From the NCBI RefSeq assembly GCF_045037415.1, contig NZ_CP173438.1: a DNA stretch of 64,000 bases; one strand, 5' to 3'. Below the pieces are notes generated by a model. It searched no databases. It was not told where the DNA came from and saw nothing but the letters and a program-made list of their open reading frames with translations. The translations under genes and the position numbers were made by a program. The first letter of the stretch is position 1, and each line of letters begins with the position of its first letter. Of this stretch, positions 52,465 through 53,036 are shown piece after piece. The DNA is from Escherichia coli. Lineage in GTDB: Bacteria; Pseudomonadota; Gammaproteobacteria; Enterobacterales; Enterobacteriaceae.

Positions 52465-52581
52465 GGTGGGCGATTCTAATTAGCCAACAGGATTCGCGCC
52501 ACTCATTTTTCTATGCTTATATTTAGTTTTGCACCTTATTACTTCACTACATGATCACTTTATTGATGGTTATTAAACCAA

Positions 52582-52902
52582 TCACCAGCAAGAAGTGAAA
52601 AAACTGTGAGTAAGCGGGTGATAAATGGTAAAAGTCATCTTGCTATAACAAGGCTTGCAGTGGAATAATGAGGCCGTTTCCGTGTCCATCCTTGTTAAAA
52701 CAAGAAATTTTACGGAATAACCCATTTTGCCCGACCGATCATCCACGCAGCAATGGCGTAAGACGTATTGATCTTTCAGGCAGTTAGCGGGCTGCGGGTT
52801 GCAGTCCTTACCGGTAGATGGAAATATTTCTGGAGAGTAATACCCAGTCTGTTTCTTTGATAATTGCGCTGTTTTTCCGCATGAAAAACGGGCAACCGAC
52901 AC
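52582..52902 (-). CDS. yceQ: Hypothetical ORF antisense to the rne leader (yceQ-like); doubtful as a real protein
   Basis: Open frame opposite the rne 5' UTR; an ORF of this name is annotated at this position in E. coli K-12 as far as I recall, but it lacks recognisable domains. Confidence 0.3.
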
Positions 52903-53036
52903 TCTGCGCCTCTTTGAGCTGACGATAACCGTGAGGTTGGCGACGCGACTAGACACGAGGCCATCGGTTCACACCCGGAAAGGCGTTACTTTGCCCGCAG
53001 CTTAGTCGTCAATGTAAGAATAATGAGTAAGTTACG
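52676..53036 (+). promoter_or_regulatory. rne long 5' untranslated leader (autoregulatory RNase E-responsive element)
   Basis: 572-bp gap between rluC and rne. E. coli rne is known to carry a roughly 361-nt structured 5' UTR mediating feedback regulation; boundaries are inferred from that figure, not mapped from sequence. Confidence 0.5.

Follow-up and report, generated by a model that had tools for sequence, protein, structure and literature searches.

The antisense yceQ frame upstream of rne in Escherichia coli is very probably a by-product of the conserved rne promoter and regulatory leader

The rne gene of Escherichia coli is preceded by an autoregulatory leader carrying the elements hp2 and hp3, and is reported to be repressed by feedback from its own product, RNase E, observations credited to work by Jain and Belasco in 1995 and by Diwa et al. 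in 2000. Leaders of this kind are gathered in the Rfam family rne5 (RF00040). Two other kinds of locus resemble the one described here. At yaaY and at psrO (upstream of pnp), apparent essentiality or failure of recoding comes from the overlapped 5′ UTR or promoter of an essential neighbour. The same applies to yceQ, the annotated frame antisense to the rne leader, but yceQ differs in that it overlaps both a promoter and a structured leader of a predicted 361 nt, and because of this double overlap the constraint spans almost the whole of the ORF. The other comparable group consists of shadow ORFs, i.e., long frames with non-genic codon usage that result from constraint on the other strand. An example is the 560 aa frame at 54528..56210 (-), which is antisense to the C-terminal half of rne and which the compositional bias of the RNase E scaffold region presumably permits. 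Shadow ORFs lie opposite coding sequence, whereas yceQ lies opposite a non-coding RNA and a promoter, and for this reason it came to be annotated as a free-standing gene.

Published experiments have addressed yceQ directly. In the work of Price et al., ribosome profiling in three conditions gave no reads for YceQ, and transposon insertions were present within yceQ; their conclusion was that it encodes no protein (10.1101/038851). Such insertions are tolerated solely in the orientation that drives rne (10.1101/038851; Goodall et al.). The apparent essentiality of yceQ reflects the promoter and 5′ UTR of rne (Goodall et al.; Rousset et al.), and CRISPRi effects at yceQ are explained by a block of rne (Rousset et al.). 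A nonsense mutation at codon 8 is present in a viable reduced-genome strain (PMC10249474). At three yceQ codons, synonymous recoding cannot be introduced (PMC7614783), which is the reverse of what is expected for a protein gene. The Salmonella orthologue is annotated as a pseudogene (PMC3487940). The spurious status of yceQ is already known, and no new biology follows from the analysis given here.

The stretch of DNA analysed (the window) is 64,000 nt of an E. coli contig (NZ_CP173438.1), and the features of the locus are collected in Table 1. The start of rluC at 52464 on the - strand and that of rne at 53037 on the + strand leave the 572 bp gap that the earlier note on this DNA had placed upstream of rne. 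This gap serves as the control region of rne. Among the 5425 complete E. coli genomes with a match to it, 5391 show at least 99% identity, and the K-12 gap differs from that of the window at four positions, all of which fall at 52468..52551 and touch neither the ORF nor the leader. The earlier note had also pointed to an opposite-strand open frame of 106–124 codons and likened it to yceQ, and this holds: the 106-codon ORF shows 100% identity to K-12 yceQ (b1085, NP_415603.2, 'DUF2655 domain-containing protein YceQ') at both the nucleotide and protein level, in the same position and orientation, so the window ORF is yceQ.

Two neighbouring elements lie outside the gap. Between yceF and rluC (51401..51473) lies a REP-like palindromic element, which is matched on both strands by the Rfam model naRNA4 (RF02564) at about 50 bits, below its gathering score of 59.5. 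The small RNA FlgO (b4826) has a predicted position of about 56341..56418 (-), between flgL and the end of rne, by K-12 coordinate mapping only.

Table 1. Coordinates of features at the rluC-rne locus (window positions).
Feature	Position	Strand	Basis
rluC coding sequence (319 aa)	51505..52464	-	ORF list; annotation in K-12 and other strains
Divergent rluC-rne intergenic region, 572 bp	52465..53036		ORF list and sequence
yceQ ORF as in K-12 annotation (b1085): GTG start, 106 codons and TGA stop	52582..52902	-	Coordinate mapping from NC_000913.3
Longest form of the yceQ frame: 124 codons from an upstream GTG	52582..52956	-	ORF list
Double DnaA box TTTATCACCCGCTTACTCACAG in the 3′ third of the yceQ frame	52604..52625	-	Located in window sequence; upstream of P1
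rne P1 promoter: -35 TTGCTA, 18 nt spacer, extended -10 TG-AATAAT	52640..52669	+	Promoter scan
RNase E 5′ UTR element rne5 (RF00040), structured autoregulatory leader	52676..53012	+	cmscan and covariation
Leader stem-loop hp2, holding the invariant CGCAGCAATGGCGTAAGACGT at 52746..52766	52726..52783	+	Rfam structure line
rne coding sequence (RNase E, 1061 aa)	53037..56222	+	ORF list

A promoter scan of both strands of 52300..53100 returned P1 as the only sigma-70-like match, with none on the - strand of that interval. Transcription from P1 is predicted to start at about 52676, which would give rne a 5′ UTR of 361 nt. This position, 7 nt past the -10 hexamer, is also where the Rfam rne5 match begins. 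Upstream of P1 are two closely spaced 9-mers resembling TTWTNCACA, TTATCACCC and TTACTCACA, which make up the double DnaA box. Both boxes are invariant in all 32 of the other Enterobacteriaceae rows covering the site, where the spacer alone varies, and in the alignment of 34 Enterobacteriaceae sequences the DnaA boxes and P1 are essentially invariant. A DnaA ChIP-seq peak denoted '(yceQ) rne', with a double-box motif, has been described at K-12 coordinate 1,144,772 (PMC11317965), and this coordinate maps to window position 52632.

The earlier note had correctly identified a long autoregulatory 5′ UTR of rne within the gap. The match to rne5 by cmscan scores 260.1 bits (E = 5.9e-82; gathering score, 180 bits), covers the full length of the model (positions 1–333 of 333) and ends 24 nt upstream of the rne ATG. 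In a scan of one genome per species, the exact 21-mer of hp2 was found in at least 120 Enterobacterales loci. When the leaders of 38 diverse Enterobacterales were folded with RNAalifold, 42 pairs were predicted, 14 of them with compensatory double changes, and hp2 contained three covarying pairs (alignment columns 81/131, 89/123 and 90/122). Selection therefore acts on the fold of the sense-strand RNA. Compared with the rne5 family, the window leader is a full-length match above threshold, lies directly upstream of rne, starts at the predicted P1 transcription start, and shares the conserved hp2 and the covarying stems. No difference from the family was detected, and the window leader is the E. 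coli archetype of RF00040. In the rne leaders of Klebsiella oxytoca (L119:8899-9271) and Raoultella ornithinolytica (L112:2941-3313), about 130 nt are inserted directly past the conserved CCGGTA that follows hp2, and owing to this insertion the 373 nt extracts of these two leaders end short of the 3′ part of the leader.

The yceQ frame lies entirely over the DnaA site, the P1 promoter and about 230 nt of the structured leader. Its length was compared with chance expectation by dinucleotide-preserving shuffling of the gap (n = 5000), taking the longest ORF of any of the six frames: this reached at least 106 aa in 4.6% of trials and at least 124 aa in 0.9%. The length is mildly unusual for a single region but not unusual genome-wide, since the 64 kb window alone has, inside longer ORFs, 46 shadow ORFs that reach 106 aa or more, among them the 560 aa frame antisense to rne. 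Scoring of codon usage by log-odds, with 41 long window genes as the training set, gave -0.13 to -0.18 bits per codon for yceQ, compared to -0.25 ± 0.11 for shadow ORFs and +0.22 ± 0.11 for genes, so that the codon usage of yceQ resembles that of shadow ORFs. Elsewhere in the window, three free-standing ORFs of 117–138 aa (48517..48933, 62679..63062 and 45490..45843, all +) have scores within the range of non-genic frames (-0.19, -0.39 and -0.08 bits per codon, respectively), and may be spurious or horizontally acquired.

No Pfam-A or NCBIfam family matched the yceQ ORF at E ≤ 1. A search among 5.8 billion protein clusters found 30 that are related, all from Enterobacteriaceae and 61–156 aa in length, and none of the 30 has an entry in the precomputed Pfam column. 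Two of them (P0001 and P0002) are 98–100% identical to YceQ. The peptide mainly common to the clusters, and the only widely shared one, has 27 residues and results from translating hp2 and the conserved stem next to it in antisense. Three clusters from E. coli and Shigella with a frameshift-like appearance (P0008, P0012 and P0015) were considered as natural disruptions and set aside, as they may stem from error-prone assemblies. In 20 E. coli genomes among the matches listed, PGAP annotates no gene in the rluC-rne gap, where two IS1 insertions are the sole features. With no current Pfam or NCBIfam model, and with the region left blank by PGAP in the other listed E. coli, the annotation of a YceQ protein is the part of the locus that is without support.

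Natural variants are found at the 3′ end of the frame. In E. coli Z22-2 an IS1 element is inserted at 52631..52639, within the 3′ end of yceQ and a short way upstream of the -35 hexamer of P1, and removes the last 16–19 codons. Apart from this truncation, the C-terminus of YceQ varies within E. coli and Shigella, giving lengths of 106, 109 and 119 aa, the longest of which results from loss of the stop codon. A second, independent IS1 insertion is present in E. coli 164 at about 52523..52552, together with a deletion of about 28 bp. Both insertions are in the rluC-rne gap, upstream of rne P1.

If YceQ were a functional protein, then its frame might be expected to be maintained among related species. 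Frame lengths in relatives were obtained by translation from the homologous GTG, which is conserved because it sits in the leader. The frame is full-length in Escherichia only, at 106–109 aa in E. coli, in two divergent species representatives under the name 'E. coli', and in E. albertii; it is intact in 4/4 Escherichia sequences examined in detail, the window included. The corresponding length is 82 aa in five Citrobacter and in Salmonella arizonae, falls to 31 aa in C. werkmanii and C. youngae (with two +1 insertions), and is 7–68 aa in 22 other Enterobacteriaceae, all of which have 1 nt indels inside the ORF. Two sequences in which the frame is 109 codons long are themselves of note: CP089930.1, labelled E. 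coli, is separated from the window by a dS of about 0.3–0.38 in rne and rluC, and NZ_JAATUR010000009.1 shows a similar divergence in its leader. By their sequence divergence these probably represent cryptic Escherichia lineages standing as separate species representatives.

The substitution pattern was compared between the frame and its flanking genes. By the Nei-Gojobori method, dN/dS of the yceQ frame against Citrobacter was 0.69–1.13, no better than in the other antisense frames, of which the +1 frame gave lower values (0.42–0.74); the flanking genes, against relatives, gave 0.002–0.019 (rne) and 0.007–0.05 (rluC). Apparent dS was 0.11–0.16 in the yceQ frame versus 0.63–1.4 in rne and rluC, and against E. 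albertii the window shows 4 changes in 318 nt of the frame versus a flanking dS of 0.42–0.61. Variable columns at codon positions 1, 2 and 3 numbered 24, 15 and 22 in yceQ (p = 0.33), compared to 2, 2 and 43 in rne and 4, 1 and 64 in rluC. With dN/dS near 1 and an apparent dS that is low relative to the flanks, all three codon positions are therefore equally constrained, and such uniform constraint is the signature of a function other than protein coding. There is no sign of purifying selection on a YceQ protein, as dN/dS is near 1 and a third-position excess is lacking.

Selection that preserves an open antisense frame across Enterobacterales was also considered. In 113 species the homologous frame had a median open length of 68 codons, compared to 66.5 expected with shuffled flanks, and 26 species had at least 100 open codons where 16 ± 4 were expected, in a shuffle that treats species as independent. 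The median equals the shuffled expectation, and the modest excess of long cases was rejected as evidence of selection, being concentrated in a few related genera.

The earlier note had considered that sequence alone leaves it undecided whether the frame encodes a protein or is a by-product of the leader. Comparative analysis of sequence does decide this. The substitution analysis across rne leaders that it proposed fits a by-product, in that codon periodicity is absent, dN/dS is close to 1, and the frame is shifted or stopped early outside Escherichia; the published outcome of ribosome profiling, its other proposed check, is negative (10.1101/038851) and falls on the same side. We are confident that the antisense yceQ frame is a spurious ORF, a by-product of the conserved rne promoter and regulatory leader, and is not a protein gene. 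What is constrained over yceQ is the other strand or the DNA itself, namely the covarying leader stems, the P1 promoter and the invariant DnaA double box.

A different explanation is that yceQ is a young protein gene found only in Escherichia, which arose de novo antisense to the rne leader and is expressed weakly or in other conditions. For a protein that is very young, is weakly expressed or appears only in certain conditions, little dN/dS signal would be expected, since the constraint that the other strand places on the nucleotides dominates. At 106–109 aa, the ORF is intact in E. coli, in the cryptic Escherichia representatives and in E. albertii, but the region is near-invariant at every codon position within Escherichia, as seen in the few differences from E. 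albertii, and an intact frame is therefore expected without selection on a protein. Its GTG start is preceded at a spacing of 6 nt by AAAGAGG, a reasonable Shine-Dalgarno-like match, and the ORF is longer than in 95–99% of the gap shuffles, yet its codon usage is like that of shadow ORFs and no promoter-like site was seen on the - strand of 52300..53100. Ribosome footprints were absent in three conditions (10.1101/038851), strains with the codon 8 nonsense mutation (PMC10249474) or with transposon insertions are viable, and the C-terminus varies within E. coli and Shigella, where it can also be truncated by IS1. Such a gene is considered highly improbable.

Alternatively, the - strand across the leader could be a non-coding antisense RNA that modulates rne mRNA as part of a divergent 'excludon', in which case the ORF would be irrelevant. 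The automated listing by ExcludonFinder names rne-yceQ as one of 16 divergent excludons detected in half or more of 58 E. coli RNA-seq samples (PMC12288877), but this may simply result from the length of the rne 5′ UTR, which extends across a 'gene' annotated on the opposite strand. As the rne 5′ UTR necessarily overlaps annotated yceQ, the listing was judged uninformative as support for a functional antisense transcript. The lack of a sigma-70-like promoter on the - strand of 52300..53100 also speaks against such an RNA, as does the covariation, which places selection on the sense-strand fold, and no experiment specific to the rne-yceQ pair was found in the literature. This explanation appears unlikely. 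Very little credence is given to a de novo origin of yceQ as a very young gene specific to Escherichia, or to a regulatory antisense transcript from the - strand, acting on rne expression under conditions not yet sampled.

With yceQ taken as a by-product, the arrangement reads towards rne as a DnaA double box, the P1 promoter and a structured leader of a predicted 361 nt (rne5, with hp2). Transcription would start from P1 and is probably modulated by DnaA at the upstream boxes, and the leader fold containing hp2 would, from the literature, let RNase E sense and degrade its own mRNA. The conserved sequences overlapped by yceQ happen to have no stop in one antisense frame, which leaves that frame open, and strong nucleotide constraint on the promoter and leader has very probably frozen the open state in Escherichia. 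The frame is open in this genus as a passive consequence of these two circumstances.

The case of yceQ is a lesson in annotation: for a long time it was catalogued as essential and of unknown function. It also caused trouble in genome recoding, where the rne leader is damaged by changes that count as 'synonymous' in yceQ. The missing coding signature, obtained from sequence comparison alone, supports removing or flagging the yceQ annotation, and the locus illustrates how constraint on a promoter and a structured RNA can preserve a long antisense ORF.
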